Shown: positions 1,147 to 30,085 of the stretch, one piece after another
How positions within the stretch are numbered: the stretch's first letter is position 1
How the letters are laid out: every line of letters starts with the position of its first letter
Source of the DNA: an uncultured Eubacteriales bacterium
GTDB lineage: Bacteria; Bacillota; Clostridia; Oscillospirales; Acutalibacteraceae
DNA: 32,180 nt
NCBI GenBank assembly: GCA_900319255.1
Contig: ONNU01000158.1
Span: 1-32,180, forward strand
Direction of reading: 5' to 3'
Translations under genes and position numbers: made by a program
The notes under the pieces: model-generated
Told to the model about the DNA's origin: nothing
The model's database searches: none
Seen by the model: the letters and a program-made list of their open reading frames with translations, nothing else

Positions 1147-1159
1147 ACCATGATAAAAT

Positions 1160-1262
1160 ATTAAATTTTTGTAACAATTCTATATTAGAGATAAATCAAG
1201 TGTTATTTGTAACGCTTTTGTACGCTTTGTGATGTATAATATAACATAATGCATAAAAAAAT
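1160..1262 (+). promoter_or_regulatory. Conserved operon-1 promoter/operator block (copy 1 of 2)
   Basis: Near-identical to 14609-14710. Contains the palindromic box TTGTAACAA (1169-1177). Direct repeats TTGTAAC (1207-1213) and TTGTACG (1218-1224) are 11 bp apart. Perfect TATAAT at 1235-1240. There is no TTGACA-like hexamer at a 16-18 nt spacing. Confidence 0.7.
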
Positions 1263-1375: not shown

Positions 1376-1672
1376 ATGACAACAGAAGTAAAAAAAGCAA
1401 ACGGGGCTTACACGATCAAGATAAGCGGAGGTATTGATACCCTTACTGCGCCGGAGCTGGAGCAGACCTTCAAGGAAATCGAGCCGCAGGCAGATAAAGT
1501 CATTTTCGATATGAAAGAGGTCGATTATATTTCATCAGCAGGAATAAGAGTTCTTGTCTATGTACACAGAGCAATGTCATCAAAGGACGGGCTTGTGCTG
1601 CGGGGATTGAATAAAAACGTCAGCACGATCATCAGCCTGACCGGATTTGACAAGGTGCTGACTATCGAGTGA
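1376..1672 (+). CDS. STAS-domain protein (anti-sigma-factor antagonist, SpoIIAA/RsbV-like), paralog 1
   Basis: 98 aa. The ORF-track start (GTG 1313) is trimmed to ATG 1376, which sits 8 nt after AAAGAGG and matches the N terminus of the paralog at 14864. Carries the STAS signature DYISSAGIRVLV, including the Ser that is phosphorylated in SpoIIAA-type proteins, and the C-terminal LTGFDKVL. Confidence 0.9.
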   Translation: MTTEVKKANGAYTIKISGGIDTLTAPELEQTFKEIEPQADKVIFDMKEVDYISSAGIRVLVYVHRAMSSKDGLVLRGLNKNVSTIISLTGFDKVLTIE

Positions 1673-12734: not shown

Positions 12735-14465
12735 ATGAAAAGAAAAGGAACTTTGCTACGAAATAAATTCAATGAGTATCTGATGTCCACCCTTGCCATG
12801 AGCGCATCGCTGTACCTTGCTGCTATTGTCGATAATATCATGGTGGGTAATATTCTCGGCACAGATGCTCTTGCGGCGGTGAATCTTACATCCCCGCTTG
12901 TCTATGTCAAAAATATCGTTTTCAGCATTTTCATCTACGGCGGCAATACGCTTGTCGCCATGTACAAGGGCAAACGCGATAATAAAAGCGCTGACAAGGC
13001 ATTTACATTTTCGCTGCTGTTCGGAATAATCGCATCAACGATCGTGATGACTGCCGGTATTCTTTTAGCTCAGCCAACTGCTACGTTCCTGTCGCAGGGG
13101 GGAGCGCTGTATGAAAATGCATTTGCGTATATCATTCCCCTGTGGGCAAGCGGACCGCTGATTGTTCTCAACAGCGGCTCTGCTGCCTATGTCAGGACAG
13201 ACGGTCTGAAAAAGCTTGCGATAGCCCTCCCCATATCTTCCAATGTAATCAATCTTGCGTGCGATTATATTTTTATGAAATGGTTCGGCTGGGGTGTTGC
13301 AGGCGCAGGATGGGCAACGGTTGTAGGCTATGCTATCGGCTCATTCCTTCTGATCATTTACTTTACTTCAAAGCAGCGCACCGTGCATTTTGTAAAGGTG
13401 TCATTCAGGGATATAAAGCAGCTTGCGGGAGTTCTTCAGACCGGACTTCCCACAGCGCTTATCCATGTCTGCAATGCTGTCCGCACCTATACGGTCAACG
13501 GCGTTATCCTTGCATCAGCAGGAACAGTGGGAATGCAGGTGGTAACGATCTGTTTGTCAGCGTTCAATGTTGCGCTGATCTTCATAAACGGCTCTGCAAC
13601 AACGCTTATGCCTATCTGCGGCGCCCTTTACGGAGAGCGTGACAATAACGGCGTCAGATATGTATTAAAGTTTTCGCTCATTGTCACGGAGATTATGTGC
13701 TTTGTTGTTCTTGCGGTGTTTGAGCTTTTTCCGGTGGCAGTCGGCGGATTGTTCGGAAAGCTTTCTCCCGAGACCGCCGCGCAGCTTGAGGGCGCTTTGC
13801 GTATATTCTCGGTCTGCATACCCTTCTATGGTATCTCCTATATTTTAAGAGCCTTCTATCAGTCAACCAAACAGCGGGGAGCTGCTTCACTCTTTACAAT
13901 ACTTGAGGGCGTGGTATTCATCGTTCCGATGATCTATATTTTCTCCAGAACCAGTCAGACGCTGATGTGGCTGTCCTTTGCATTGGCAGAGATAGCTGCG
14001 ATCATCACTACTGCGCTTACCATGCAGATCATTGCAAAGCGCAAAAAGCTCGGCAGCTTCCTTATGATAGACAGCTCCGGTGAATCGGGAGTGCTGGATA
14101 TGACGATAGATAATGAGGTCGAAAGCGCCGTTGTCGCATCGAGAAAGATCAGGAAATTCTGTAATGAAAATAATATCAGCGATACCCTCAGCACGATACT
14201 GACCGTTACCTCTGAGGAGCTTGCAGTCAACGCTGCAAAATATGCCTACAAAGGTAAAAGCGAAATTGATGTCTGCCTGAGAATTCTCGAAAACAAACTG
14301 GTGCTGAGATTCAGGGATAACGGTATGATATTCAATCCCACAGAATATATAGACGACTCGGGAAAAGAAGTCACCGGACTTCTGGTTGTCCGCAAGCTCA
14401 CTCCTGATATCAGCTATAACCGTGTTCTTGGCTTCAATGTTACTGTTGTTACTCTTGACAGATGA
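12735..14465 (+). CDS. MATE-family efflux transporter fused to a C-terminal RsbW/SpoIIAB-like domain, paralog 1
   Basis: 576 aa; starts 5 nt after the NRPS stop. The N-terminal ~445 aa are multi-helix with a MATE-like start (LAAIVDNIMVGNILGTDALAAVNL). After a KRKK stretch the tail reads SEELAVNAAKYAYKG and RFRDNGMIFNPTEYIDDSG. Confidence 0.88.
   Translation: MKRKGTLLRNKFNEYLMSTLAMSASLYLAAIVDNIMVGNILGTDALAAVNLTSPLVYVKNIVFSIFIYGGNTLVAMYKGKRDNKSADKAFTFSLLFGIIASTIVMTAGILLAQPTATFLSQGGALYENAFAYIIPLWASGPLIVLNSGSAAYVRTDGLKKLAIALPISSNVINLACDYIFMKWFGWGVAGAGWATVVGYAIGSFLLIIYFTSKQRTVHFVKVSFRDIKQLAGVLQTGLPTALIHVCNAVRTYTVNGVILASAGTVGMQVVTICLSAFNVALIFINGSATTLMPICGALYGERDNNGVRYVLKFSLIVTEIMCFVVLAVFELFPVAVGGLFGKLSPETAAQLEGALRIFSVCIPFYGISYILRAFYQSTKQRGAASLFTILEGVVFIVPMIYIFSRTSQTLMWLSFALAEIAAIITTALTMQIIAKRKKLGSFLMIDSSGESGVLDMTIDNEVESAVVASRKIRKFCNENNISDTLSTILTVTSEELAVNAAKYAYKGKSEIDVCLRILENKLVLRFRDNGMIFNPTEYIDDSGKEVTGLLVVRKLTPDISYNRVLGFNVTVVTLDR
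14093..14462 (+). other. RsbW/SpoIIAB-like (HATPase_c_2-type) tail domain of exporter 1
   Basis: N-box-like EELAVNAAKYAY and G1-like DNG. The lid region has only one Gly (EVTGLLVVRKL). Boundaries are approximate. Confidence 0.7.
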
Positions 14466-14577: not shown

Positions 14578-14608
14578 ATCGCCGCAGACGTTTTCAGAGT
14601 AATGAATT

Positions 14609-14710
14609 ATTAAATTTTTGTAACAATTCTTTATTAGATAAAAATAGCCTGTTTTTGTTACGCTTTTGTACGCTTTTTAATGTATAATATATATAATGCA
14701 TAAAAAATCA
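14609..14710 (+). promoter_or_regulatory. Conserved operon-2 promoter/operator block (copy 2 of 2)
   Basis: TTGTAACAA (14618-14626), TTGTTAC (14655-14661), TTGTACG (14666-14672) and TATAAT (14683-14688). The 11-bp phasing and the 17-bp distance from the proximal box to the -10 are the same as in copy 1. Confidence 0.7.
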
Positions 14711-14863
14711 GGATAGTCAGATATTCTGATTAGGATATTTTATTATTCTGTGAATATGATGTATCATTTTCACTTTCCACTGATGTGAGCTTTGTTTTGT
14801 ACGGCGGACGTGGGAATGATACTTCAGCAATAACCAGAAAAAACTAAGAAAGAGGTATTTGCT

Positions 14864-15160
14864 ATGACAACAGATGTAAAAAATGAAAATGAGGTTTACA
14901 CAATTATGATCAGCGGCAGGATAGATACTCTTACCGCGCCTGAGCTTGAGCAGAAGTTCAAGGAGATCCAGCCGGATGCAAAAAAGGTCATATTTGATAT
15001 GAAGGATGTGGAATACATTTCATCGGCTGGAATGAGAGTGCTTGTTTATGTCCACAGGGAAATGTCATCGAAGGACGGACTTGTTCTTCGCGGACTTACC
15101 AGAAACGTCAGCACCATCATCGGACTTACCGGATTTGACAAGGTACTGAATATTGAGTGA
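14864..15160 (+). CDS. STAS-domain protein (anti-sigma-factor antagonist-like), paralog 2
   Basis: 98 aa with RBS AAGAAAGAGG upstream. By my count 79 of 98 residues are identical to the STAS protein at 1376-1672. The EYISSAGMRVLV motif is retained. Confidence 0.9.
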   Translation: MTTDVKNENEVYTIMISGRIDTLTAPELEQKFKEIQPDAKKVIFDMKDVEYISSAGMRVLVYVHREMSSKDGLVLRGLTRNVSTIIGLTGFDKVLNIE

Positions 15161-15179: not shown

Positions 15180-15352
15180 TAGACGATTGTAAATTGGCAA
15201 ATGGTCGTCTGCCCGCCGCAGGAAGTGCCCTTGGGGTGCGGGCGGACACCTCGCCAAAAGCCTGAAAATCCTTGGAAAACGGAGAAAATTGATTATTCTA
15301 AATACAAATAAATCCGCATAAACACAGGCTTTTCTGTATTTTACAATCAGCT

Positions 15353-15365
15353 ATTACGAAGTTGA
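15353..15365 (+). repeat. 13-bp direct repeat ATTACGAAGTTGA, copy b
   Basis: Exact match to 15167-15179. Lies immediately 5' of the NRPS-2 RBS AAAGGAG. Confidence 0.85.
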
Positions 15366-15382
15366 GTAAAGGAGAATGCGTA

Positions 15383-18300
15383 ATGTACCAGAGTATCATC
15401 CGGAAAATTCTGGATAATGTCAAAAACGCCCCCGACACCATCGCGATCATTGACCAGGGCGAGGGCAATCAGTTTACCTACAGTGAATTTGAAGCATATG
15501 CTCGCAGGGTAGCAGGAAAGCTCAGCCGTCTGGGAGTGAGCCGCAATGACTTTGTAACGATCGAGCTTCCGAGAAACAAGGAATATATCGCATCAATGGC
15601 AGCTGTATGGATGACGGGAGCAGCATTTGTGCCTCTTTCACCGGCATACCCTGCCGAGAGAGTGCAGTTTATCCGCAGCGACTGCAGCGCAAAGGCTGTG
15701 ATCGACAGCGCCTTTTTAGAAAATATAGGAAACGAAGCTCCCATTGAAGATATTGCTTCAGTCGAACCCTCCGATCATTCCCTTATGATATACACCTCAG
15801 GCTCGACCGGAAAACCCAAGGGTGTACTTCATTCCCATCTCAGCATCAGCGACTCTGTATTCCGCTTTCTGGAATATGCAGACAGCCCCGCAGGCTTCCG
15901 TGCGGCGGTAGGCGCGCCGTTTACATTTGTTGCATCGGTGCAGGGCGTATTTGAGCCGCTTTGTGCCATTAACACCGCGGTGCTTGTTCCGTATGAGGCA
16001 ATGCGCGACCCTGTTCTGCTGGCAGATTTTATTGAGCAGTACCAGGTGAACAGATGTTTTATCAGCCCCAAAATGCTCAGGGTATTCAAAGCAAAGGGCA
16101 ATTCCCTTAAAATCGTATCCACCGGCAGCGAGCGTGTTTCAAATACATACAGCGCAGATTATACGATACAGGTAGCCTACGGTCAGACAGAATCCGCAGG
16201 CGCTGTTATGATGTTCAGAATTGATAAGAAATATGATAATACTCCCATCGGCAAGCCCATCGGAAATGTAAAGGCTTATCTTCTGGATGAAAATAATCAG
16301 CCTGCCGATGAAGGCGAGATGTGCCTTGCAGGCAATTTTGCAACAGGATATCTGAATCTGCCCGAGCTGACAGAAAAGACCTTTATCCCGAACCCCTTCT
16401 TTGAGCAGGACGGATTTCCGAAGCTTCTCAAAACAGGCGATATCTGCAAAAAAGGCGAAAACGGCAATTATATCTATCTGAACCGCAAGGACTGGATGGT
16501 CAAGATCAACGGTCAGCGCGTAGAACCGGGAGAGATCGAAGCTGTACTTAAAAACACTGACGGAATAGCCGATGCTGCGATCAAGGATTTTAAAAATACC
16601 TTCGGACAGGTTTATCTTGTCGCATATTATACAGAAAAGGAAGCAGTTGACGTTGAAGCGCTGAAAGCAAAGGTCTCCGCGCAGCTGCCGCCCTATATGA
16701 TACCCTCGTTCTTTGTCAGACTTGATAAGCTGCCGGTTAACCAGAACGGCAAGCTGGACAGAAACGCTCTGATCCCTCCCGAAGCAGGCGAATTCAAAAA
16801 TGAATACGCTGCTCCTGAAACAGAGCTGCAAAAGGCTCTTTGCTCAGCATTTGAAAAGATACTCGAAGCGGAGAACGTAGGTATTGACGATGATTTCTAT
16901 GCTCTCGGCGGAGATTCCATAAAGAGCGCGATGATTGCCCGTGAATGCGAGGCTTATCATCTTTCCACAGCTGTTATCCTTGCGGGCAAAACTCCCCGCG
17001 GTATCGAGCATATGATAAAGCGCTCAGCGCAGAAGGCATCTGTTGTCAGAAAGGAAAACAAGCCCAAGGTCTATCCGCTGACTTCCTCTGAACGGGGAAT
17101 GTATCTGGAGCAGAAGCTTTATCCTGATTCTGTTTCCTTCAACCTGAATATCGGCGTGATGATAAGCGGTGCAGACGCCGAAGCTGTCAGAACAACACTG
17201 GAGAGCATTTTCTCCTCACATGAAGCCTTCCGCTCCACCTACGGCGAGGAAAACGGTCTTCCTGTCCGCATCGTTACTGACAGGCTGCCCCAGATCATTG
17301 AAAAGACAGCCGCAGCAAGGGAAGATGTAATTAAGATAATTGACAGCTATGCCGAACCGTTTGATCTTTGCGCTGATATCCCGGTGCGCCCCACGCTTTA
17401 TACTATCTCAGACGGCGAGGTCATTCTCCATATGGCTATCCATCATATTGCTTTTGACGGCGGCTCTGCAAAGCCCTTTATCACAGAGCTGATTGACGGC
17501 TTGAACGGAAAAATGCCGGAGGCTGCTACGATAGATCTGTCGGATCTTTATGATTGTCAGACGGAGGAGCAGCATGAAAACGGACTTGCTTATTATCGAA
17601 ATGTCTTTGCCGATGGAGTTCCCGTGAACGAAATGCCGACTAAAGCCCGCCGCCCGAAGGTACATCCGGTTTCCGACCGGGAGATCGCCTTTGATCTCGA
17701 CACTGCTAAGGCAAGGCTGATGGATAAAGCTGCGCGCAAATTCGGCGTAACAAGATTTGAGCTGATCTTTGCGGCTATTTCTATGGCTCTCGGAAAGTAC
17801 ACCTCTTCCGAGGACGTTGTGCTGGGTATTCCCACCGATATGCGTCCCAACGGAGCGGAGGGTGTTATTGGAATGTTTGTCAATACAGCTCCCGTGCGTG
17901 TAAAACCGGTAAGAAGTATGGAGCTGAACGATTATTTTGCCGCTGTAAGCGAAGCTGTGCGCGGAGCTACATATGGAGCATCCCTGCCCTTTGAGGATAT
18001 CGTGGCGGAATTTGTCAAAACGCGCGACGAAAGCCGCAGCCCCATATTTGATGTCAGCGTAAACTATCTGCAAAAGCCGGCTGTTTACCGCAGCAGCGGT
18101 CTGATTGTGGATATGTATTCTCCATTGCAGAACATGACCCGTGATATAGCCATTGTCATAAGCAACAGCGAGGATGGTATGCGCTTCGTTGCAAGGTATT
18201 CCGGAGAGCTGTTTGAGGATGATATGATCGAAAGCTTCCTCGGACAGGTAAGGCATACTGTTGATATCTTTACAGGCAGCGAAGCTAAAACCGTCCGGGA

Positions 18301-21300
18301 TGCTCTTGCTTTGCCGGAAGCGCAGGCTGAGCGTCTGGAGGCATTTTCATCCGAAGCGACCGCAGAAATATCCGATGTACTGCTACACCGTGTCTTTGAA
18401 AGGGCAGCGTCAGCTTCACCGGAGAAAACAGCGCTCATAGCCTGCGATAAGACCGTAAGCTTTGAAGAGCTGAATAACAATGCGAACCGTATCGCCCACA
18501 GCCTTATGGAAAAAGGCATAAAGCCGGGTGACAGCGTTGTTCTGCTGCTGCCGAGAAGAAGCTTCTATTTTGAAGCAGTATTCGGCGTTTTGAAATCAGG
18601 CGCAGCCTTTGTACCCTGCGACCCTGAATATCCTCCGGACAGGATAAGCCACATTACCGAAGATTCCGGTTCGCGCTTTATCATAACGACAGAGGATCGC
18701 GCAGCAGATCATCCCTCCGAAAAGACGCTTATCATACATTCACTTTATGAAAACAGTGATACAGAGGATCCGGACGTTCAGATGTCAGGTCAGGATCTTG
18801 CGTATATGATATATACCTCAGGCTCCACAGGCAAGCCAAAGGGCGTTATGCTGACCCATGCCGGTATATGCAGCTTCTGCACCACACATCATGCAAATAT
18901 CCTGTATCAGCTTGCCGATGAGCAGATAGATACCATGCTTGCTGTCACCACCGTATCATTTGACCTTTCCCTCAAGGATACCCTTGGTATTCTTTGTAAC
19001 GGCAAGACCGTTGTATTTGCCTCAGAAACGGAGATGAATGATCCTCGTGAGCTGACAGCCCTGATAAATAAGAATCATGTGGACGCGATGAACGCAACAC
19101 CGTCCCGTTATATGCAGTATATGGAATATGAGCCATTCTGTGAAGCGCTCAGAGGCTGCACATTGGTAATGGCAGGCGGCGAGCTGTTCCCGGCAGCCTT
19201 GCTTGAAAAGCTGAAATCCCTTGAGATACCTCATATTATCAACACCTACGGTCCTACGGAAACTACCATATCCTGTAATATGGCATTTCTGCAGAATTTG
19301 GATCATGTCACAGTCGGAAGACCGCTGCTGAATTATAAAGAATATATTGTTGATAAATTCGGAGATCCGGCTCCCTGCGGAGTAGTAGGAGAGCTGTATG
19401 TGGGCGGACCGGGTGTTGCAAGAGGCTACCGGAATCTGCCTGAAAAAACAGCTCAGTCATTTGTTGATTACCGCGGACAGAGAATGTACCGCACAGGCGA
19501 TTATGCAAAATTTGACAGGGAAGGCAAGGTCTATATTCTCGGCAGACTTGACAGTCAGGTCAAGCTGCGCGGTCTGCGCATTGAGCTTTCCGAGATAGAG
19601 GAGCTTATCGCAGCGCAGCCTCACATTAAAAAAGCAGCTGTTGTCATCCGCAAGCTGGGAGGACAGGACAATCTCTGCGCCTACTTCACAGCCGATACGG
19701 AGATCGACATTAACGCATTGCGCAGCGAGCTGAAAAAGCATCTTACACATTATATGGTTCCGGCTGCATTTTTACAGATGGAGGAGCTGCCTGTTACAGC
19801 AAACGGCAAGACCGATACAAAGAGCCTGCCCGAGCTTACACTTGAAGCCCGGCAGACCACAGCGCCTCAAAGCGAAATGCAGCAGCGCATATTTGATATT
19901 GCTGCGGAGGTTCTCGGCAATAGCAATTTCGGAATTGAAACCGAATTGTATGCAGCAGGTCTGACATCACTTAACAGTGTAGGCTTCTGCATCAGACTCA
20001 GCGATGCATTCGGAGTGACCGTTCAGATCCGTGACCTGCGGGATAACGACACCATTGAAAAGCTTGAAGTCTTTATCAGGACGCTTGAACAGCAGGATAC
20101 CGAGGAATTTGAGATATTTGACGAATACTCCATTACCAAAACACAGGAGGGCATTTTCTTTGAAACAATGTCCCATCCTGATATTACGATCTATAATATC
20201 CCCACGCTTCTGAAGATAGATAAAGCAATAGATACGGAACGCCTGAAAAAGGCTGTGGCTGCTGCTGTCAACGCTCATCCGTACCTGATGACAAAAATGT
20301 TCATCAGCAAGATGGGTGAGATCAGACAAAAGAGAGCCGAAAGAAGCTTTGACGAAAGCGAGATCACCGATATCCGCTGCGGCAATATTGAAGAGGTAAA
20401 GAATGACCTTGTAAAGCCCTTTGATATTGAAAATGAAAAGCTGTACCGTTTCAGCGTGATCGAAACAGACGAAGGAAAATATCTGTTCCTTGATATACAC
20501 CATATTGTATTTGACGGCGAATCAAAGAAGATACTTCTGCGTGATATCACCGCAGCATATAACGGCGAAACGCTTACACCTGAAAAATACAGCGGCTATG
20601 AAGCTGCTTTGTCTGAGCAGAAGCTCCGCGCAGGCGAGCATTATGACAGATCAAAGAAATACTATACCGAGCTTCTGGACGGTGTTGAAAGCGACTGTCT
20701 GCCCATCGGCGATGTTCTTTCCGATTCTCAGAAAAAAGACGGCGGTACGCTGAATTTAAGCGGAAAAGAAAGCGTCCCATCATCTGTCAGAGCGTACTGC
20801 GCTGAAAATCATGTCAGTGAAAATGCATTCTATACAGCTGTATTCGGCTGGCTTCTTGGCAAATACTGCGGCAGAGAGGACGACTCATTGTTCATGACTG
20901 TCAATAACGGAAGAAACGATCCCCGTTTCCGTGACAGCGTATCCATGTTTGTACGCACATACCCCGTACTTTGCAAGCTCAGCACCAATTCTGTATCCGA
21001 CTATATCAGCGAGATCGGCAAACAGCTGTCAGACAGCCTGCAATATGACGTATATTCCTTTGCAGAGATAAGCCATGACCTTCATGTAAGCGCTGACGTG
21101 CTGTTTGTATATCAGAGCACCATGACTGACGGAAAAACATTCACCTTCTGCGGCGAAAAGGCAGAGAACGTCCCCCTGACCTTTGACGAGGAAAAGGCAA
21201 AGATCGAGCTGCTCATTTATCCCAACGGCGACACCCTGAGCTATCATGTTTCATATGATGCAAACACCTATACCGAAGATTTCATCCGGGATATGCTTGC

Positions 21301-24300
21301 GGCATATGAGCGCGCTCTTGCAGAATTTACAAAGCGTTCAGATACCTCAGAGATCCAGCTTGTTGACGAAGAGACCCTTGAAAGACTTGAAGAGAAAAAC
21401 CGCACCGAAAGTGATTATGAGATAACCGATATAGTAACACTGTTCCGCCGCCGCGCAGAGCAGTCCCCGGATAATATTGCAGTAGTATATCTCGATCACG
21501 TTTATACATATAAGGAAGTTGACCGTATCACTGAGAATATTGCATCATTCCTGAAAAGCAAGGGCATAGGGAAGGATCAGGCTGTATCCGTAATTATACC
21601 GCGCTGTGAATATATGCCCATCGCAGCTCTCGGCGTGTTAAAGGCAGGCGCAGGCTATCAGCCGCTTGACCCGAGCTATCCGCCGGAACGTCTTGAATTT
21701 ATGATACAGGATGCAGACGCAAAATATCTCATAGCTGACAGAACGCTTATGGACAGACTTCCGAATTATAACGGACCTGTACTTTATACCGATGAGATAC
21801 CCGATCTACCCGACGGTGAAAAAATAAGTGAAAACCCCGATCCGGGCGATCTGTTCATCATGCTTTATACCTCCGGCTCCACAGGCATACCAAAAGGCGT
21901 AATGCTTGAGCATCATAACCTGTGCAGCTTCTGCAACTGGTACAGACAATACTACAATATGGATGAAACGAGCCGCGCCGCAGCATATGCAAGCTATGGC
22001 TTTGACGCTCATATGATGGATATGTATCCCATACTGATTTCCGGAGGTCAGCTGCATATTATAGACGAGGCAATAAGACTTGACCTTCTGGCTATCAAGG
22101 ATTATTTCTGTAAAAACGGCATAACCCACAGCTTTATCACAACGCAGGTGGGCAGACAATATGCTGATCTGTTCCCCGATGCAAAGTATCCGCATTATCT
22201 CAGTGTCGGCGGAGAAAAGCTCGTTCCAATCGCTCCGCCTGAGGGCTTCCGTTTCTTCAACGCCTACGGTCCGACAGAATGTACTATCTTTACACATACA
22301 TATCCGGTTGATAAGATGTACAGGCGCGTTCCCATCGGAAGACCGCTGTTCAATATGAAGCAGTATGTTGTTGATAAAAACCTCAACCGGCTTCCCTTTG
22401 GTATTCCCGGCGAGCTGATAGTAGCAGGACATCAGGTGGGCAGAGGCTATCTTAACCGCCCCGAAAAGAACGCCGAGGTCTTTATCCGCAATCCCTTCTC
22501 TGATGAGCCGGGCTACGAGCATGCCTATCGCACAGGGGATATTGTGCGCATACTCAGTGACGGCAGCGTTGATATCATCGGAAGAAATGACGGTCAGGTC
22601 AAGATCCGCGGCTTCCGTATCGAGTTAAGCGAGGTCGAGGGCATCATCCGGAAGTTCCCCGGTATCAAGGATGCTACAGTACAGGCATTTGACGAAACCG
22701 GCGGCGGTAAGTTCATTGCGGCATATGTTGTTGCTGACGAGCCTGTTGATATTGACGCTCTGGGCGCTTTCATCAAACAGGAGAAGCCTGCATATATGGT
22801 TCCTGCCGTTACGATGCAGATCGACCGCATACCGCTGAATCAGAACCAGAAGGTCAACAAGCGCGCCCTGCCCGAACCGGTCAAAGCAGGAAAGACCTCC
22901 GATAATGAACATCAGGCGCGCCCTCTTACACGTTTTGAGGAAGAGATCGCATCGGTGGCAAAGCGTCTTTTAGGAGACATGGAAATGCATCCCGCAGAGC
23001 CGCTGACAAGCTATGGTCTGACAAGTATCAGCGCTATCGGACTCGTTGCAACGCTTGCAGATAAATTCAATGTGGAAATTTCTGCGCCCAGACTGCTTGA
23101 CGGCGCCAGCATCATAGATATTGAGAATATGATCTTTGAGGATTGGATGAAGCAGGGCTTTGCAAATAAACCCGAGCCTCAGAACGCCGCTGCGGAGGAA
23201 AAGCCAGTAACAGACAGAGCGCCGCTTTCAGCGGTACAGCTTGCAGTCTATTATGATGCAATGAAAAACGAAGCTGACGTTGTATATAATATTCCCATGT
23301 GCCTGCAATTTGACAAGCTGGATGCGCAGAAGCTTGCTGAGGCTGTGAAAAAGGCGGTAGCCGCACATAGCTATCTCAATACACATATAGAGCTTTGCGA
23401 CGGCGAGCTTATCCAGGTAAGGGATGACAATGTTCAGACACAGGTCGAGATCCTTACGCTTAACGAGGAAGAACTGGAGTATTACAAGAATACATTTATC
23501 CGACCCTTTGATCTGCACACAGGACCCCTTTATCGTTTTGCAGTGATCAATTCGGGAGAAAAGACCTATCTGTTCCTTGACATCCACCATCTGATATATG
23601 ACGGAATGTCAAGCGGAGTGCTTCTGCGGGATATCGGCAGAGCATATACAGGCGAAGCTCTTTCCGCAGAGGAATATACCTATTTTGATTATGCGCAGGA
23701 AAGCGATGAATTCAAGAGATCCGATGCATATGCAGAATCGGTATCATATTTTGATAAGATGTTCGAGCGCTTTGAAGCGCCCACTGAGATACCGACCGAT
23801 AAACCGGGAAGCGCAGAAAACGGCGTGATCGCCGAAGCATACTGCCCTGTTTCAAAGCAGGCTGTAGATACCTTCTGCCGTCAGAATAATATGCAGCCCT
23901 CTGCATTTTTCCTTGCTGCGGTATTCTATACAGTTTCCCGTTTTGCCGGAACAAAGAATGTTTACCTCTCCACTATTTCATCAGGACGTGAAAGTGTAAA
24001 AATGCGCCGTACAGTAGGTATGTTTGTGCATACACTTCCGCTTGCTATGAGCTTTGAAGAAAACCGCGATGTTCTGGAGCTTATCAATGCATCCAACAGC
24101 GTGATGAGGGGCAGTATACAGAATGAAAACTATCCCTTTGCTGAGATCGCCGCAAAATACGGATATAAAACCGAGATAATGTACGAATGCCAGATCGGTG
24201 TCGTTGCAGACGGCGGTGAGATCGGCGGCAATGCATATAAGAGTGTACGTCTGCGTTTTGAAGCTCCGAAATTCAAGACAGTTTTTGCTGTTGTAGAGCA

Positions 24301-27300
24301 TGATAACGACTATATGATCCTGATACGCTATAATGATGCGCTGTATTCAAAACCGTATATGCAGACGCTGGCTCAGTCGGTGAAGAATGTCACGGAAAGA
24401 ATGACAGCAGATAAATCTGCCGCAGTCAACTCTCTTCCGCTGATAACCGAAGATGAAAAGCAGTCGCTTCTTGCTTTGGGAATTTCCGCTAAGCAGGAGA
24501 TCGAAACAAAGCTTCTTCATAAGCTGTTTGAAAAAGCAGCGGCAGCCGATCCTGATAAAACAGCCCTTATTGCCTGCGATAAAACACTGACATACAGCGA
24601 GCTGAACGGAAATGCCAATCGTATCGCTCATTATCTGATGGATAAGGGAGTGAAGCCCGGAGACAGCATTGTTCTGCTGCTGCCGAGAAGAAGCAGCTTT
24701 TTCGAGGCAATGTTCGGCGTACTGAAAACGGGCGCAGCCTTTGTTCCCTGCGATCCGGAGTATCCAGCCGAAAGGATCAGCCACATAACAGACGACTCCG
24801 GCTCCCGCTTCATCATTACCACAGAGGATCATGCATCCGATTATCCGGCAGAAAAAGTCCTTTTGATAGATTCACTGTATGACAGCGATAATACAGAAAA
24901 TCCCGATGTTGCAGTGACAGGCGATGATCTTGCATATATGATCTACACCTCAGGCTCCACCGGAAAGCCCAAGGGCGTAATGCTGCGGCATGAGGGCATA
25001 TGCAACTACCTGCTGCCGCATCCCGCAAATATGCATATCTATAAGATCAGGAAGCTTGTCAGCGCATACCTTTCTGTCACCACCGTTTCCTTTGATATGT
25101 CCTTCAAGGAGCATACAGCGGCATTGTGTAACGGCAAAACTCTGGTATTTGCAGATGAGAATGAGATGAACGACCCCCGGGCGCTGGCAGAGCTTATGGA
25201 AAAGCATCATGTGGATTGTATCAATGCGACACCGTCACGTCTGCAGCAGTATATGGAATTCAAGCCCTTCAGAGAGAGGCTTGGCAGCTGCAAGGTGGTT
25301 CTTTCCGGCGGTGAAGCATATCCCATTTCCCTGAGAAATGCAATAAAGGAATGCTCGGACGATATCATCATTATCAATACCTATGGTCCTACAGAGATCA
25401 CCGTTTCAAGCAACGCTGCGATAATCAACGAAACGGATCATATCCATATCGGCAGACCGCTGTTCAATTACAGCGAATATATTGTAGATTCCGATCTGAA
25501 TCTTCTGCCCCGCGGAGTTATCGGCGAACTGCTTATCGGCGGAGCAGGCGTTGCAAAGGGATACCGTAACCTGCCCGAGCAGACCGAAAAGAGCTTTATT
25601 GAATGGGGCGGAGAGCGAGTATACCGTTCCGGCGACTATGCTAAATGGGATGCAGACGGAAATGTTATCATTCTCGGCAGAATGGACGGACAGATCAAGC
25701 TCCGCGGACTTCGTATCGAGCTTGGTGAGATCGAAGGACTTATTGAGCAGCAGCCTGGCATAAGACGCGCTGCGGCAGCTGTACGCAAGCTGAGCGGACG
25801 TGAAAATCTCTGCGCATGGTTTACTGCGGATCGTGACATCGACATTACTCAGCTGAGGGAAGCGCTTTCCCAGAAGCTGACACATTATATGGTTCCCGCA
25901 GCAATGATGCAGGTAGAATCCATTCCCGTTACACCAAACGGAAAGACAAATGTAAAAGCCCTGCCTGATCCCGAAGTTATAGACAGCGGCGAATATGTAG
26001 CGCCTGTCGGCAAGGCAGAGGAATTCTTCTGCGGACTGTTTGCCGAGATACTGGGTGTGGAAAAGGTCGGCGCTACGGATGACTTCTTCTCCATCGGCGG
26101 AACAAGTCTTGCAGTCACCGGCATTATGATAAAGGCTACCGAAAACGGCTACGAGCTTACCTACGGCGATGTATTCAAGTACACGACTCCCCGTCAGCTT
26201 GCCGCGAAATTCACAGGTGAGGGAGACACCAAGACACTTTCAGCCGCACGCTTTGATCTGTATAATTACGATAAGATCCATGAGCTGCTGTCACACAATA
26301 CATCCGGCTCCTTTGTCAACGGAGAAAAGCGCCCCATTGGCAATATCCTTCTGACAGGCGCCACCGGATTCATGGGTATCCATGTGCTTGCAGAATACCT
26401 GAATTCCTACAGCGGCACAGCATATTGTATGCTTCGCAAGGGACGCTTTGAATCCGTTGCGGCAAGGGTCAGAAATATGCTTTACTATTATTTCGGCGAT
26501 GAGTTTGAAGATAAGCTGGATCGTGTTCAGGCATTTGAGGGCGATGTAACAAGCTTTGACAGCTTCAGCCCCCTGCTTTCACTTCCGGTAGATACAGTCT
26601 TTAACTGTGCCGCAAGTGTAAAGCATTTCTCCAGCGGCACTGATATTGAGGATATCAATGTAGGCGGAGTTCAGAACTGTATCCGCTATTGTCTGGAGAA
26701 GAATTCAAGACTTATCCATTTCTCCACGACCTCGGTTGCAGGCGCAGTTGTAGCAGAACCGGGCGCGCCTCAGCGTTTCCTTGATGAGCATATTCTGTAC
26801 TACGGACAGATTCTTGAGAACCAGTATACATCTTCCAAGCTTCTTGCAGAGCGTGAAGTATTTGAAAGCATGGTTGAAAACGGACTTGATGCCAAGGTCA
26901 TCCGTGTCGGCACACTTGCGCCGCGTGAATCCGACGGCGAATTCCAGATCAACTTCCTCAGCAACAGCTTCATGGGACGCCTGAGAAGCTTTGCGATGCT
27001 GAAGGTATTCCCGTACAATATGATAAACTTCCCTGTCCGCATGGGTTCCATCGACGAAAGCGCAAAAGCGTTTATGCTGCTTGCCCAGACACCACGTGAG
27101 TGCTGTCTTTTCAATGCGATAAACACCCATTCAGCTCCGCTGGTGGATATCATCCATATAATGAAGGAGCTGGGAATAGAAATAGATATCACCTATAACG
27201 AGGTATTTGAAAAGGAGCTTGAAAAAGCAGAGGCAGATCCGGATAAGGCTGCGATCCTGCAAAGTATGCTTGCCTATAAGAACATGAACGGCAAAAATAC

Positions 27301-27451
27301 AATACCTGTCGCTTCAAAATTTGATTATACCTCAAAGGTTCTTGCTTGTATGGGCTTCTACTGGAAAAACACCGACAGCGGATATATCCGCCGCTTCATT
27401 AAGGCGCTTATCGGACTGGAATTCTTTGATGAAAACAATCTTAACCGATAA
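15383..27451 (+). CDS. Tetramodular NRPS with terminal reductase: A-T-C-A-T-C-A-T-C-A-T-R
   Basis: The ORF-track start (TTG 15362) is trimmed to ATG 15383, 8 nt after AAAGGAG. A3 motifs at about 15784-15825, 18796-18845, 21856-21900 and 24930-24980. Carrier Ser codons: 16916-16918 (GGDS), 19967-19969 (GLTS), 23024-23026 (GLTS), 26105-26107 (GGTS). HHxxxDG at 17441-17461, 20498-20518 and 23585-23605. Reductase motifs GATGFMG (26357-26377) and YTSSK (26825-26839). Confidence 0.97.
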   Translation: MYQSIIRKILDNVKNAPDTIAIIDQGEGNQFTYSEFEAYARRVAGKLSRLGVSRNDFVTIELPRNKEYIASMAAVWMTGAAFVPLSPAYPAERVQFIRSDCSAKAVIDSAFLENIGNEAPIEDIASVEPSDHSLMIYTSGSTGKPKGVLHSHLSISDSVFRFLEYADSPAGFRAAVGAPFTFVASVQGVFEPLCAINTAVLVPYEAMRDPVLLADFIEQYQVNRCFISPKMLRVFKAKGNSLKIVSTGSERVSNTYSADYTIQVAYGQTESAGAVMMFRIDKKYDNTPIGKPIGNVKAYLLDENNQPADEGEMCLAGNFATGYLNLPELTEKTFIPNPFFEQDGFPKLLKTGDICKKGENGNYIYLNRKDWMVKINGQRVEPGEIEAVLKNTDGIADAAIKDFKNTFGQVYLVAYYTEKEAVDVEALKAKVSAQLPPYMIPSFFVRLDKLPVNQNGKLDRNALIPPEAGEFKNEYAAPETELQKALCSAFEKILEAENVGIDDDFYALGGDSIKSAMIARECEAYHLSTAVILAGKTPRGIEHMIKRSAQKASVVRKENKPKVYPLTSSERGMYLEQKLYPDSVSFNLNIGVMISGADAEAVRTTLESIFSSHEAFRSTYGEENGLPVRIVTDRLPQIIEKTAAAREDVIKIIDSYAEPFDLCADIPVRPTLYTISDGEVILHMAIHHIAFDGGSAKPFITELIDGLNGKMPEAATIDLSDLYDCQTEEQHENGLAYYRNVFADGVPVNEMPTKARRPKVHPVSDREIAFDLDTAKARLMDKAARKFGVTRFELIFAAISMALGKYTSSEDVVLGIPTDMRPNGAEGVIGMFVNTAPVRVKPVRSMELNDYFAAVSEAVRGATYGASLPFEDIVAEFVKTRDESRSPIFDVSVNYLQKPAVYRSSGLIVDMYSPLQNMTRDIAIVISNSEDGMRFVARYSGELFEDDMIESFLGQVRHTVDIFTGSEAKTVRDALALPEAQAERLEAFSSEATAEISDVLLHRVFERAASASPEKTALIACDKTVSFEELNNNANRIAHSLMEKGIKPGDSVVLLLPRRSFYFEAVFGVLKSGAAFVPCDPEYPPDRISHITEDSGSRFIITTEDRAADHPSEKTLIIHSLYENSDTEDPDVQMSGQDLAYMIYTSGSTGKPKGVMLTHAGICSFCTTHHANILYQLADEQIDTMLAVTTVSFDLSLKDTLGILCNGKTVVFASETEMNDPRELTALINKNHVDAMNATPSRYMQYMEYEPFCEALRGCTLVMAGGELFPAALLEKLKSLEIPHIINTYGPTETTISCNMAFLQNLDHVTVGRPLLNYKEYIVDKFGDPAPCGVVGELYVGGPGVARGYRNLPEKTAQSFVDYRGQRMYRTGDYAKFDREGKVYILGRLDSQVKLRGLRIELSEIEELIAAQPHIKKAAVVIRKLGGQDNLCAYFTADTEIDINALRSELKKHLTHYMVPAAFLQMEELPVTANGKTDTKSLPELTLEARQTTAPQSEMQQRIFDIAAEVLGNSNFGIETELYAAGLTSLNSVGFCIRLSDAFGVTVQIRDLRDNDTIEKLEVFIRTLEQQDTEEFEIFDEYSITKTQEGIFFETMSHPDITIYNIPTLLKIDKAIDTERLKKAVAAAVNAHPYLMTKMFISKMGEIRQKRAERSFDESEITDIRCGNIEEVKNDLVKPFDIENEKLYRFSVIETDEGKYLFLDIHHIVFDGESKKILLRDITAAYNGETLTPEKYSGYEAALSEQKLRAGEHYDRSKKYYTELLDGVESDCLPIGDVLSDSQKKDGGTLNLSGKESVPSSVRAYCAENHVSENAFYTAVFGWLLGKYCGREDDSLFMTVNNGRNDPRFRDSVSMFVRTYPVLCKLSTNSVSDYISEIGKQLSDSLQYDVYSFAEISHDLHVSADVLFVYQSTMTDGKTFTFCGEKAENVPLTFDEEKAKIELLIYPNGDTLSYHVSYDANTYTEDFIRDMLAAYERALAEFTKRSDTSEIQLVDEETLERLEEKNRTESDYEITDIVTLFRRRAEQSPDNIAVVYLDHVYTYKEVDRITENIASFLKSKGIGKDQAVSVIIPRCEYMPIAALGVLKAGAGYQPLDPSYPPERLEFMIQDADAKYLIADRTLMDRLPNYNGPVLYTDEIPDLPDGEKISENPDPGDLFIMLYTSGSTGIPKGVMLEHHNLCSFCNWYRQYYNMDETSRAAAYASYGFDAHMMDMYPILISGGQLHIIDEAIRLDLLAIKDYFCKNGITHSFITTQVGRQYADLFPDAKYPHYLSVGGEKLVPIAPPEGFRFFNAYGPTECTIFTHTYPVDKMYRRVPIGRPLFNMKQYVVDKNLNRLPFGIPGELIVAGHQVGRGYLNRPEKNAEVFIRNPFSDEPGYEHAYRTGDIVRILSDGSVDIIGRNDGQVKIRGFRIELSEVEGIIRKFPGIKDATVQAFDETGGGKFIAAYVVADEPVDIDALGAFIKQEKPAYMVPAVTMQIDRIPLNQNQKVNKRALPEPVKAGKTSDNEHQARPLTRFEEEIASVAKRLLGDMEMHPAEPLTSYGLTSISAIGLVATLADKFNVEISAPRLLDGASIIDIENMIFEDWMKQGFANKPEPQNAAAEEKPVTDRAPLSAVQLAVYYDAMKNEADVVYNIPMCLQFDKLDAQKLAEAVKKAVAAHSYLNTHIELCDGELIQVRDDNVQTQVEILTLNEEELEYYKNTFIRPFDLHTGPLYRFAVINSGEKTYLFLDIHHLIYDGMSSGVLLRDIGRAYTGEALSAEEYTYFDYAQESDEFKRSDAYAESVSYFDKMFERFEAPTEIPTDKPGSAENGVIAEAYCPVSKQAVDTFCRQNNMQPSAFFLAAVFYTVSRFAGTKNVYLSTISSGRESVKMRRTVGMFVHTLPLAMSFEENRDVLELINASNSVMRGSIQNENYPFAEIAAKYGYKTEIMYECQIGVVADGGEIGGNAYKSVRLRFEAPKFKTVFAVVEHDNDYMILIRYNDALYSKPYMQTLAQSVKNVTERMTADKSAAVNSLPLITEDEKQSLLALGISAKQEIETKLLHKLFEKAAAADPDKTALIACDKTLTYSELNGNANRIAHYLMDKGVKPGDSIVLLLPRRSSFFEAMFGVLKTGAAFVPCDPEYPAERISHITDDSGSRFIITTEDHASDYPAEKVLLIDSLYDSDNTENPDVAVTGDDLAYMIYTSGSTGKPKGVMLRHEGICNYLLPHPANMHIYKIRKLVSAYLSVTTVSFDMSFKEHTAALCNGKTLVFADENEMNDPRALAELMEKHHVDCINATPSRLQQYMEFKPFRERLGSCKVVLSGGEAYPISLRNAIKECSDDIIIINTYGPTEITVSSNAAIINETDHIHIGRPLFNYSEYIVDSDLNLLPRGVIGELLIGGAGVAKGYRNLPEQTEKSFIEWGGERVYRSGDYAKWDADGNVIILGRMDGQIKLRGLRIELGEIEGLIEQQPGIRRAAAAVRKLSGRENLCAWFTADRDIDITQLREALSQKLTHYMVPAAMMQVESIPVTPNGKTNVKALPDPEVIDSGEYVAPVGKAEEFFCGLFAEILGVEKVGATDDFFSIGGTSLAVTGIMIKATENGYELTYGDVFKYTTPRQLAAKFTGEGDTKTLSAARFDLYNYDKIHELLSHNTSGSFVNGEKRPIGNILLTGATGFMGIHVLAEYLNSYSGTAYCMLRKGRFESVAARVRNMLYYYFGDEFEDKLDRVQAFEGDVTSFDSFSPLLSLPVDTVFNCAASVKHFSSGTDIEDINVGGVQNCIRYCLEKNSRLIHFSTTSVAGAVVAEPGAPQRFLDEHILYYGQILENQYTSSKLLAEREVFESMVENGLDAKVIRVGTLAPRESDGEFQINFLSNSFMGRLRSFAMLKVFPYNMINFPVRMGSIDESAKAFMLLAQTPRECCLFNAINTHSAPLVDIIHIMKELGIEIDITYNEVFEKELEKAEADPDKAAILQSMLAYKNMNGKNTIPVASKFDYTSKVLACMGFYWKNTDSGYIRRFIKALIGLEFFDENNLNR
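26335..27448 (+). other. Terminal SDR-type thioester reductase (R) domain of NRPS 2
   Basis: LTGATGFMGIHVL, HFSTTSV and YTSSK. Clearly paralogous to 11605-12726. Confidence 0.85.
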
Positions 27452-27461: not shown

Positions 27462-29204
27462 ATGGAAAGAAACGGAAGATTAATAAAACATAAATATAAC
27501 GAATACCTTCTTTCTACGCTTGCCATGAGCGGATGTGCTTCAATCGCGACTATCGTTGACAGGATCATGGTGGGAAATCTGCTGACAGCCAACGATCTTA
27601 ACGCAACGAATCTTATCGGTCCGCTTATCTATGTCCTCAATATGATCTTTGCGCTGTTTATTTACGGCGGAAACACTCTCGCAGTGACCTTCAAGGGAAA
27701 ACGAGATCAGAAGACTGCAAATAAATGCTTTACCATTTCTATCTTAGGCGGTACTTGTTTCATGGCGCTATTTGCGATAGCGGGTCTGATTTTTCAGGTC
27801 CCGCTGTCGAACCTGCTGTGCATAGGAAAAGAGGAATTGTATAAGCCGGTATCAGAATATCTTGTTCCCGTGCTGTTTCTTGGAATGCTTATGATACTGC
27901 TCAACGGCACTTCGGCTTTTATCAGGGTCGACGGCTTGAGAAAGCTTGCCATAATCATTCCCATTGTATCAAATGCGCTGAATCTGACCCTTGATTATGT
28001 CTTTATGGGCATCTGCAAATTTGGTATAGCCGGCGCTGGCTGGGCGACAAATCTGGGCTTTGGGGCTTCGCTTTTCCTGCTGATACCGTATTTCCGTTCC
28101 GAAAAACGCACAGTATTCTTTACAAAGATAGGCTTCAAGGATATCAAGCTTATGCTGAATTCCTTCCATCTGGGTCTGGCAACGGCGCTTATGTATCTTT
28201 GCATGTTTCTCAAGACATTTTTCCTCAACAGGATCATCGTTATTACCCTTGGCGCTGTGGGAGGACAGATACTCGTTGTCTGCTCAGCAGTCATGAGCGT
28301 CGGCAATATATTCTTTACCGGAACAGCTCAGACCATGCTGCCGATAAACGGAGCATTGTACGGAGCGCAGGATTATAAGGGCATCAGGCATCTTTTCAAA
28401 ACCTCAATGCTTGTGATGGAAATAATTTGCGTTGTAATAATGGCAATATTTATGATATTCCCCCTGCAAACAGCCGCAATTTTCAATGTCACAAGCCCAG
28501 AGGCGCAGGAACTTCTGCCAAGCTCGATCTTTATGTTCAGCCTTTGTATCCCGCCCACCGGTATGCTTTTTATCATGCGCTCACATTATCAGTCCACCGG
28601 TCATCGCAATGCTGCAACGGTGCTGACTGTGCTGGAGGGAACGGTATTCTTTATCCCCATACTCTGGGCATTATCACGGATCAATCCTGATCTTATGTGG
28701 CTGTCTCATGTAATATCGGTGGTATTGTCTATTATTGTAATGGGTCTTGCAATGTGCATCAGCGCAATGCGGAAAGGAAGATCTGCATTTTTGCTGCTGC
28801 CGAAGCAGGATGACGGAAGCTCCTTCGATTTCAGCATAGAAAACAAGATCGAAGCAGCAGTAGAAGCATCTGGGAAGATCACTGAATATTGCCTGCAAAA
28901 CGGCATAAGCGAAGAGGTTGCAAGTATTATCGGCGTTTCGGTAGAGGAGCTGTGTGTTAATACAGCTAAATATGCAGTAAGCTCCAAATCGGATATGATA
29001 GATATTTTCCTGAAGATCACACCGGAAACAGTAATTCTGAAGGTGCGGGATAATGGAATGATCTTTAATCCCACAGAATATATTGACAATTCAGGCGAAT
29101 CCATCACCGGTCTGAAGATGGTCAGGAGCATCAGTTCAAAGGTGGAATATAACCGTGTAATCGGCTTCAATAATACCATCGTTACCGTCAACCGCACGCT
29201 CTGA
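27462..29204 (+). CDS. MATE-family efflux transporter fused to a C-terminal RsbW/SpoIIAB-like domain, paralog 2
   Basis: The ORF-track start (27321) lies inside the NRPS gene. It is trimmed to ATG 27462, 5 nt after AAGGAGG (27450-27456) and 10 nt after the NRPS stop. About 580 aa. MATE-like N terminus (IATIVDRIMVGNLLTANDLNATNL). The tail reads SVEELCVNTAKYAV and VRDNGMIFNPTEYIDNSG. Confidence 0.88.
   Translation: MERNGRLIKHKYNEYLLSTLAMSGCASIATIVDRIMVGNLLTANDLNATNLIGPLIYVLNMIFALFIYGGNTLAVTFKGKRDQKTANKCFTISILGGTCFMALFAIAGLIFQVPLSNLLCIGKEELYKPVSEYLVPVLFLGMLMILLNGTSAFIRVDGLRKLAIIIPIVSNALNLTLDYVFMGICKFGIAGAGWATNLGFGASLFLLIPYFRSEKRTVFFTKIGFKDIKLMLNSFHLGLATALMYLCMFLKTFFLNRIIVITLGAVGGQILVVCSAVMSVGNIFFTGTAQTMLPINGALYGAQDYKGIRHLFKTSMLVMEIICVVIMAIFMIFPLQTAAIFNVTSPEAQELLPSSIFMFSLCIPPTGMLFIMRSHYQSTGHRNAATVLTVLEGTVFFIPILWALSRINPDLMWLSHVISVVLSIIVMGLAMCISAMRKGRSAFLLLPKQDDGSSFDFSIENKIEAAVEASGKITEYCLQNGISEEVASIIGVSVEELCVNTAKYAVSSKSDMIDIFLKITPETVILKVRDNGMIFNPTEYIDNSGESITGLKMVRSISSKVEYNRVIGFNNTIVTVNRTL
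28822..29201 (+). other. RsbW/SpoIIAB-like (HATPase_c_2-type) tail domain of exporter 2
   Basis: N-box-like EELCVNTAKYA and G1-like DNG. The lid region has a single Gly (SITGLKMVRSI). Boundaries are approximate. Confidence 0.7.
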
Positions 29205-29461: not shown

Positions 29462-30085
29462 ATGTTCAGAAAAAATATTGATTGGATATTTTTTGATATC
29501 GGCTCGACCCTTGTTGATGAAAGCATTGCATACAAAAGGAGAATTGAAAAGACGATAGAAAACACAAACGTAAGCTTTACCGATTTTTATAATAAAATGG
29601 TCGAGATATCAGAATACGATCAGAAATGCTATCAAAAAGCCCTTGAAGCATATGGACTGACTATGGCGCCGTGGTGCAGCGAGGATGAAATTGTATATGA
29701 GGATGCTGAGGATTGTCTGAAAAGCCTTAGCGAAAAATATTCCATAGGAATAATTGCAAATCAGATCCCCGGAAGTGAAAAGCGCCTTGAAAAAATGGGA
29801 CTGCTCAGATATATTGATCTTGTAGCCGCATCAGCCGAAGAGGGTGTATCAAAGCCTGATCTGCGGATATTTGAAATAGCCCTTAGTAAAGCAAAATGTA
29901 AAGCCGGCAGAGCGGTAATGGTGGGGGACAGGCTTGATAATGATATCGTCCCTGCAAAGAAAGCAGGCATGAAAACTGTATGGATCAGACAGGGCTTCGG
30001 CGGTCTGTCATGTATCCGTTCAGCCGAAGAAACCCCCGATCTTACAGCCGGCAGCCTAACAGAAGTCAGGAACCTGTTTTACTGA
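29462..30085 (+). CDS. HAD-superfamily hydrolase (subfamily IA-like phosphatase)
   Basis: 207 aa with RBS AAAGGA. Motif I is FFDIGSTL (the D-x-G variant seen in some HAD phosphatases), motif III is SKPD, and motif IV is VGDRLDNDI. Confidence 0.8.
   Translation: MFRKNIDWIFFDIGSTLVDESIAYKRRIEKTIENTNVSFTDFYNKMVEISEYDQKCYQKALEAYGLTMAPWCSEDEIVYEDAEDCLKSLSEKYSIGIIANQIPGSEKRLEKMGLLRYIDLVAASAEEGVSKPDLRIFEIALSKAKCKAGRAVMVGDRLDNDIVPAKKAGMKTVWIRQGFGGLSCIRSAEETPDLTAGSLTEVRNLFY

Follow-up and report, generated by a model that had tools for sequence, protein, structure and literature searches.

Why should an efflux pump end in a domain that resembles an anti-sigma factor kinase, and why should two diverged copies of that pump keep one stretch of 14 residues letter for letter? 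These questions are raised by contig ONNU01000158.1 of an uncultured Eubacteriales bacterium from the Acutalibacteraceae (assembly GCA_900319255.1). Positions 1 to 32,180 of its forward strand, which make up the whole stretch of DNA that was analyzed, are referred to here as the window. Two genes of the window, named exporter 1 and exporter 2, encode fusions of a MATE transporter with a HATPase_c_2 domain. It was found that the shared stretch is an expected element, namely the G1 motif of a nucleotide-binding domain, and that the system surrounding it, which also comprises STAS, PP2C, and nonribosomal peptide synthetase (NRPS) genes, appears to be an undescribed and widespread variant of partner switching. 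The features on which the comparison of the two exporters rests are as follows, in window coordinates.

12735..14465, + strand: exporter 1, paralogous MATE::HATPase_c_2 fusion of 576 amino acids (aa); from Pfam and BLASTP.
27462..29204, + strand: exporter 2, 580 aa, with a MATE transporter (aa 1-440) and a predicted cytoplasmic RsbW/SpoIIAB-like HATPase_c_2 tail (aa 441-580); from Pfam, the ribosome-binding site (RBS) and ATG, and AlphaFold2 (AF2).
28782..29201, + strand: tail domain of exporter 2 (aa 441-580), GHKL/Bergerat fold of the anti-sigma serine-kinase type; from a tail-only AF2 model, PDB matches, and a profile.
14313..14354, + strand: invariant block RDNGMIFNPTEYID, copy 1, exporter 1 aa 527-540.
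29046..29087, + strand: invariant block RDNGMIFNPTEYID, copy 2, exporter 2 aa 529-542, which spans the G1 box (R-D-x-G-x-x-F-N-P) and the first residues of a short ATP lid.
28944..28976, + strand: N box of the exporter 2 tail, EELCVNTAKYA, aa 495-505.
29091..29114, + strand: reduced G2-like element SGESITGL, exporter 2 aa 544-551.

Both exporters match PF01554 (MatE, in two stretches) and PF13581 (HATPase_c_2) above the Pfam gathering scores, so the common architecture proposed by a first-pass annotation, which was made from the letters alone, was borne out. The same annotation had judged the two proteins to be about half identical, and this agrees with the BLASTP alignment, in which 262 of 578 positions are identical (45%), with 68% positives and 2 gaps. 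Its start for exporter 2 also held, as the ATG at 27462 has AAGGAGGA just ahead of it as RBS; its coordinates for the identical block were off by 7 nt for copy 1 and by 1 nt for copy 2. A longer exporter 2 reading frame opening at TTG 27321 was rejected as unnecessary, and it runs into NRPS 2. In the public gene call (P0001, 591 aa), the start is placed 11 codons ahead of ATG 27462, so that the frame runs over the stop of NRPS 2; the RBS backs 27462.

The block is an exact match between the two proteins, as had been claimed. Its 14 residues form the longest identical run of the alignment, the next longest being 8, and when the identity vector was shuffled 100,000 times the probability of a maximum run of at least 14 was 0.0042. 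At the DNA level 36 of the 42 bases agree, and the differences (6/6) are all synonymous. The proportion of synonymous sites that differ between the exporters (pS) reaches 0.72 over the whole gene and 0.78 within the block, which is saturated, and the exporter duplication is therefore old. Because the differences in the block are all synonymous and pS is saturated, the identity was read as purifying selection on the protein. The opposing explanation, that the identity arose by chance or through recent gene conversion between the paralogs and has no functional meaning, can draw on a Met at block position 5 which is common to both paralogs and rare in both ortholog groups. It is refuted by the six synonymous differences within 42 nt, which include the codons flanking this Met, by the saturated pS, by the shuffling result (P=0.004), and by the motif itself, which more than 120 of 144 representatives (50% identity level) retain.

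At block positions 5 and 6, both paralogs have Met-Ile (29058-29063 and 14325-14330), and orthologues mostly have K, N, A, or V followed by I, V, F, or P. Both positions are variable among the orthologues of both paralogs, and at position 5 the exporter 1 orthologues never have Met, which in the exporter 2 group appears in just 2 of 15 clusters. Since this Met is rare, the full 14/14 identity is partly luck at one site. The shared Met533 could reflect co-adaptation to common partners or chance; as a single position it is compatible with chance.

What kind of domain does the block belong to? The HATPase_c_2 match scores 39.2 bits against a Pfam cut-off of 27.4. As a single sequence searched against PDB sequences, the tail gave weak matches to the Hsp90 G1 region only (E ~0.2), and a family profile was required before the search reached B. 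subtilis RsbW (6m36, E 7e-4). In the profile alignment the tail sequence RDnGkiF stands opposite ADEGDSF of RsbW and EELcvN opposite SEACTN, and E496 and N500 of the tail align with E49 and N53 of RsbW. The full-length AF2 model of exporter 2 has a predicted local distance difference test (pLDDT) score of 85 and contains 12 transmembrane (TM) helices followed by an alpha/beta domain, in which the block starts at the end of strand 523-530 and enters the loop ahead of helix 552-557. A fold search with this model gave MATE structures alone, and a tail-only model (pLDDT 88) was therefore used. Its top 16 PDB matches are SpoIIAB, RsbW, and UsfX structures, which identifies a Bergerat (GHKL) fold of ~140 aa. 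The best match is 1th8_A (E 3.6e-8), which like 1til and 1tid is a structure of SpoIIAB with SpoIIAA (TM-score ~0.74-0.78), and other close matches are RsbW-RsbV (6m36, 6m37), UsfX-RsfB (8ih8), and Rv1364c (3ke6). Based on the RsbW profile alignment, the weak Hsp90 alignment, and the strand-then-loop position in the model, the block was called G1. Its assignment to the G1 box and the beginning of the ATP lid in a GHKL domain of the RsbW/SpoIIAB type is well supported. Of the two roles offered by the first-pass annotation, ATP binding or partner contact, the former is thereby upheld.

Further analysis examined the block across the fusion family. A database search gave ~105 clusters (90% identity) with the MatE plus HATPase_c_2 architecture, and conservation was scored with sequence weighting in 14-residue windows over 102 aligned fusion proteins. 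The block window scores 0.784, which ranks first in the tail and second in the whole protein, behind the TM motif GIAGAGWAT (0.81); a formal alignment thus confirms that it is unusually conserved. The family consensus of the block is RDNGKIFNPTEYID. Its residues R529, D530, G532, F535, and P537 are invariant family-wide, as are E496 and N500 of the N box, and G545, G550, and L551 of the G2-like element are nearly so. A profile search of 1.84 billion representative proteins returned 1181 matches at E<=1e-10, the best 150 of which are mostly fusions of ~580 aa. R-D-x-G-x-x-F-[ND]-P is kept in 124 of the 144 newly returned sequences (representatives, 50% identity level), and 85 of these 124 also keep the Tyr at block position 12. 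As a motif, the block belongs to the whole family and is not peculiar to the exporter 1/2 pair, being genome-specific only at the Met of position 5.

Relatives of the fusion were found by a genome scan in at least 122 species-representative genomes. The carriers are almost all metagenome-assembled genomes of rumen Clostridia (Ruminococcus, Lachnospiraceae, Acutalibacteraceae/Oscillospiraceae), and isolates that carry it are Ruminococcus sp. FC2018, JL13D9, and JE7B6, Ruminococcaceae FB2012, and Pseudobutyrivibrio ACV-2. Butyrivibrio proteoclasticus is a further cultured carrier. Several genomes have two or more fusion copies on separate contigs. An estimate of dN/dS along the tail, which had been proposed as a check, could be obtained in part: the exporter pair is saturated (pS 0.72) and gives no usable value, and ortholog comparisons used in its place gave ~0.07-0.10 in the tail and in the MATE domain alike, as an upper bound with dS near saturation. 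The recurrence of the fusion in these 122 genomes and ~100 clusters, together with the low ortholog dN/dS, indicates that it is clearly maintained by selection, and the earlier argument that it is functional rather than accidental stands on this evidence.

The MATE part matches MatE in two stretches (Pfam, E 2.6e-12), has the 12 TM helices of the AF2 model, and matches PfMATE 6fhz in Foldseek (E 1.8e-13, TMt 0.84), as well as 3vvn, 4lz6, and structures of DinF and NorM; the NCBIfam MATE models match below their own cut-offs. D33, N174, and D178, with N-x3-D spacing, are invariant in 36 family members. They resemble D41, N180, and D184 of PfMATE, which we take to be its acidic and polar TM1/TM5 coupling residues and which have the same spacing. 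The MATE part looks like a working exporter. The termini of bacterial MATE proteins face the cytoplasm and the segment after TM12 is rich in Lys and Arg; therefore the tail should face the cytoplasm, where the STAS proteins are.

The remaining features of the window are organized around two parallel operons, both on the + strand. The gene order of operon 1 is STAS 1, a TM-HAMP-PP2C(SpoIIE)-HATPase_c_2 protein, NRPS 1, and exporter 1, and that of operon 2 is STAS 2, NRPS 2, and exporter 2.

293-1099: OmpR-like response regulator, upstream of operon 1.
1159..1260, + strand: putative promoter/operator block, copy 1, upstream of STAS 1, with repeated TTTGTAAC/TTTGTACGC elements and TGTATAAT.
1376..1672, + strand: STAS 1, anti-sigma-antagonist type, 98 aa from ATG 1376, phospho-acceptor motif YISSAG; from Pfam STAS and TIGR00377.
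1742..3712, + strand: membrane sensor TM-HAMP-PP2C(SpoIIE)-HATPase_c_2, 656 aa; from Pfam.
3724..12729, + strand: NRPS 1, 3001 aa, three A and two C domains and a terminal reductase; a gap of 5 nt separates its stop from the exporter 1 start.
14608..14707, + strand: putative promoter/operator block, copy 2, upstream of STAS 2.
14864..15160, + strand: STAS 2, 98 aa, motif YISSAG; from Pfam STAS and TIGR00377.
15362..27451, + strand: NRPS 2, ~4029 aa, four A and three C domains and a terminal reductase; a gap of 10 nt separates its stop from the exporter 2 start.
29462-30085: HAD hydrolase, downstream of exporter 2.

All component types of a partner switch are co-encoded in the window, namely two STAS proteins, a SpoIIE-type PP2C::HATPase_c_2 protein, and two exporter tails, and the set recurs in related loci. 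A reductase-terminated NRPS lies directly upstream of the fusion in 62 of the 68 loci with enough upstream sequence, at a median gap of 16 nt. Among 41 well-flanked loci (at least 6.5 kb upstream and at least 3.5 kb downstream), a STAS gene was found within 10 kb in 29 and a PP2C gene in 26. Since a long NRPS gene can place STAS beyond the range considered, both counts are minimum values; in the window, STAS 2 sits 12.3 kb upstream of exporter 2. One related locus, L056 from Ruminococcus sp. JL13D9, has the order NRPS, fusion, PP2C::HATPase_c_2, PGA_cap, STAS, and plain MATE. The PGA_cap family protein of this locus (13551-14741) stands between PP2C and STAS, and the second MATE, which is tail-less (15182-16567), lies downstream. 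The reductase-ended NRPS family to which the window pair and loci L003-L082 belong is large and near-confined to rumen Clostridia, with multiple copies in several genomes. From their domain content, the terminal thioester reductases of these tri- and tetra-modular NRPSs imply peptide aldehyde or alcohol products.

The STAS proteins retain the residue on which such a switch turns. In an alignment-based count, the acceptor serine is kept in 69/69 cluster-associated STAS proteins, at the position of SpoIIAA S58 and RsbV S56 and inside Y-[IV]-x-S-[AGS]-[GA]. The listed reading frame of STAS 1 begins at GTG 1313, and its start by homology is ATG 1376. STAS 1 and STAS 2 are identical at 79 of 98 residues (81%), with pS 0.54 and a nonsynonymous proportion (pN) of 0.10, which makes this pair far closer than the exporters (45%) or the exporter tails (48%). 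Ahead of both STAS genes lies a near-identical non-coding block of ~100 nt, with TTTGTAAC/TTTGTACGC repeats and then TGTATAAT, which was retained although the synonymous sites of the flanking paralogous genes are saturated. This block is probably a common promoter/operator of both NRPS operons, and it may be a candidate binding site for the OmpR-like response regulator.

Starting from its N-terminus, the protein encoded at 1742-3712 consists of a TM helix, ~170 aa outside the cytoplasm, another TM helix, a HAMP domain, a SpoIIE-type PP2C domain, and a HATPase_c_2 domain with canonical GGLG. This layout marks it as a membrane sensor with a phosphatase and a kinase-like domain. The window has a single such gene for its two STAS/exporter pairs. 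No sigma factor gene or domain was found among the window reading frames or the L056 neighbours scanned. Among the window genes scanned, STAS therefore has no RsbW-like partners available other than the exporter tails and the domain attached to PP2C. By its fold, N box, G1, and co-encoded STAS partner the tail is RsbW-like; because no sigma factor partner gene was seen, we do not classify it among the anti-sigma factors.

A link between the two types of HATPase_c_2 domain is provided by tandem fusions. In P0134 (786 aa), P0255 (757 aa), and P0204 (754 aa), the MATE part and the tail are followed by a second HATPase_c_2 domain. The two HATPase_c_2 domains of P0134 belong to different types: the first to that of the exporter tails, with 33% identity to the tail of exporter 2 (E 6e-27), and the second, which has a canonical IGGLG, to that attached to PP2C, with 39% identity to the C-terminal domain of the window PP2C protein (E 2.5e-23). 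Moreover, RsbW and SpoIIAB are dimers, and RsbW-type dimerization proceeds through alpha1/beta1 (PMC7340262). On the Rosetta-stone logic of the tandem fusions, combined with these dimers, the sequences suggest that the exporter tail and the sensor kinase domain act as a pair. In another protein, P0227 (937 aa), the MATE part and tail are followed by a C-terminal transglycosylase domain (PF00912), which is either a merged gene call or a true further fusion.

With the architecture, the fold, the retention of the motif, the purifying selection, and the linkage to NRPS, STAS, and PP2C genes established, we lean, with moderate confidence, towards a partner-switching module within an NRPS cluster whose RsbW-like element is tethered to the exporter. 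The tail would bind STAS, might act as its kinase, and would influence transport. In such a module, Asp530 and Gly532 of G1 would hold the adenine, and the membrane TM-HAMP-PP2C::HATPase_c_2 sensor would determine whether STAS is phosphorylated. Unphosphorylated STAS would dock onto the nucleotide-loaded tail of the pump, and this docking would be a post-translational on/off control over export of the NRPS product, which is probably a peptide aldehyde. STAS would then be re-phosphorylated either by the tail itself or by the PP2C-attached kinase domain paired with the tail. The phosphorylation switch would probably act directly on the pump. A fuller version is put forward more tentatively: that this is the first partner switch with an RsbW-like element inside a small-molecule efflux pump, in which a STAS protein controlled by the PP2C/kinase sensor binds the tail and gates export of the nonribosomal peptide (aldehyde), the tail and the sensor kinase domain form an RsbW-like dimer, and no sigma factor takes part.

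Several observations weigh against the tethered partner switch. The pLDDT of the full-length model falls to 59-68 over the block and lid. Between F535 and G550 of the tail there are 14 residues, and between the corresponding G1 Phe and G2 Gly there are 26 in RsbW (F89 to G116) and ~22 in the PP2C-attached HATPase_c_2 of the window. Moreover, G2 is reduced to SGxxITGL rather than GxGxG, where RsbW and the PP2C-attached domain have GGLG. Judged by the short lid and the reduced G2, ATP binding or catalysis by the tail may be impaired. Partner contact, the other role that the first-pass annotation had offered for the block, finds no support in the RsbW-RsbV structure. In that structure, Glu49 hydrogen-bonds to the phospho-acceptor Ser56 of RsbV, and the hydrogen-bond contacts come from helices alpha1-alpha3 (R23, D42, K44/S48, E49, Y118) (PMC7340262). 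By this precedent the main STAS contacts would fall outside G1, and some contact with STAS may yet be made by that half of the block which belongs to the lid. Neither STAS nor PP2C was seen within 10 kb in 12 of the 41 well-flanked loci, where long NRPS genes may hide them. The direction of signalling could also be the reverse, with the pump as sensor instead of output.

The same short lid and single-glycine G2, set against the GGLG of the PP2C-attached domain, are what would be expected if the tail were a non-catalytic pseudokinase or scaffold. It would then recruit STAS, or heterodimerize with the canonical HATPase_c_2 of the sensor and so join sensor to pump, and the PP2C-attached domain would do all of the phosphorylation. 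The tandem fusions, which put a canonical domain straight after the tail, and the alpha1/beta1 dimerization of RsbW-type proteins fit this arrangement as well. It was nevertheless considered unlikely, as a dead domain would not be expected to keep the nucleotide-binding and catalytic residues E496, N500, D530, and G532 invariant, which they are in this family, and as at least three well-flanked loci, such as L017, have STAS but no PP2C::HATPase_c_2 within 10 kb.

The two remaining explanations appear quite improbable, to a similar degree. If the tail were a membrane-tethered anti-sigma factor or anti-regulator, it would hold a transcription factor until STAS frees it, and the MATE part would be an anchor, or a substrate sensor that links product level to expression. 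Its nearest structural relatives are indeed bona fide anti-sigma factors, and the cluster has a response regulator and a duplicated operator; against this, neither the window nor the scanned L056 neighbours showed a sigma factor gene, and the MATE core is conserved as a transporter (invariant D33, N174, D178) and placed as an exporter right after the NRPS. If instead the tail were a stand-alone ATP/ADP sensor, which gates the pump by the energy state of the cell independently of STAS, conservation of the adenine- and Mg-binding residues would be explained, as would the loci without a detectable STAS nearby. This sits poorly with the strong co-occurrence of STAS and PP2C, and with the invariance of E496, the equivalent of the RsbW residue that contacts the STAS serine.

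To our knowledge, little is understood of how the export of antibiotics and natural products is controlled post-translationally, and MATE pumps are generally held to be unregulated at the protein level. Public annotation describes the fusion proteins only as "MATE family efflux transporter" or "ATP-binding protein", and the literature searched, which was not exhaustive, describes neither a fusion of MATE with HATPase_c_2 nor partner switching within NRPS clusters. If the exporter tail is indeed the RsbW-like element of a partner switch, then partner switching would reach beyond sigma factors to transport, and rumen Clostridia would govern the release of secondary metabolites by an anti-sigma-type switch without a sigma factor. 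It would also provide a handle to turn on export from otherwise silent rumen gene clusters.

How does this arrangement compare with known systems? The exporter tail has in common with RsbW, SpoIIAB, and UsfX the fold, the N-box Glu and Asn, and the G1 Asp-x-Gly-x-x-Phe. As with RsbV, SpoIIAA, and RsfB and the phosphatases RsbU and SpoIIE, a cognate STAS with an acceptor serine and a SpoIIE-type PP2C are likewise co-encoded. Unlike these kinases, the exporter domain is covalently joined to the C-terminus of a 12-TM MATE pump. Compared with RsbW, its segment from G1 Phe to G2 Gly is 12 residues shorter (14 vs 26) and its G2 is SGxxITGL. Furthermore, the exporter locus lies in an NRPS cluster without a sigma factor gene seen, rather than in a stress or sporulation operon. 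On the transporter side, the best structural matches of the MATE part are exporters of the DinF/PfMATE type. Canonical MATE pumps have ~450 aa and end after TM12, whereas the exporter family has an extra signalling domain of 140 aa.

The M. tuberculosis protein Rv1364c, a fused RsbU-RsbW (3ke6) found among the tail matches, joins PP2C and HATPase_c_2 as does the 656-aa protein of the window. We take Rv1364c to include its own STAS and to act on SigF. In the window, STAS is encoded by genes of its own, and the exporters bear HATPase_c_2 domains of a second class. Partner switches with outputs other than sigma factors are known from Anabaena HenR/All4160 (bioRxiv 10.64898/2026.04.08.717354) and Vibrio SypE/SypA (PMC10120452), where a phospho-controlled STAS acts directly on a non-transcriptional target. 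The output of these systems is an enzyme or a biofilm regulator, and none has an RsbW-like domain built into an efflux pump. A link between STAS and transport is common to SLC26/SulP proteins, in which STAS is fused to the transporter, and to MlaFEDB, in which the STAS protein MlaB is a subunit (PMC8256260). In the exporters the transporter family is a different one (MATE) and the arrangement is inverted, in that the transporter bears the RsbW-like domain and STAS is free and phosphorylatable.

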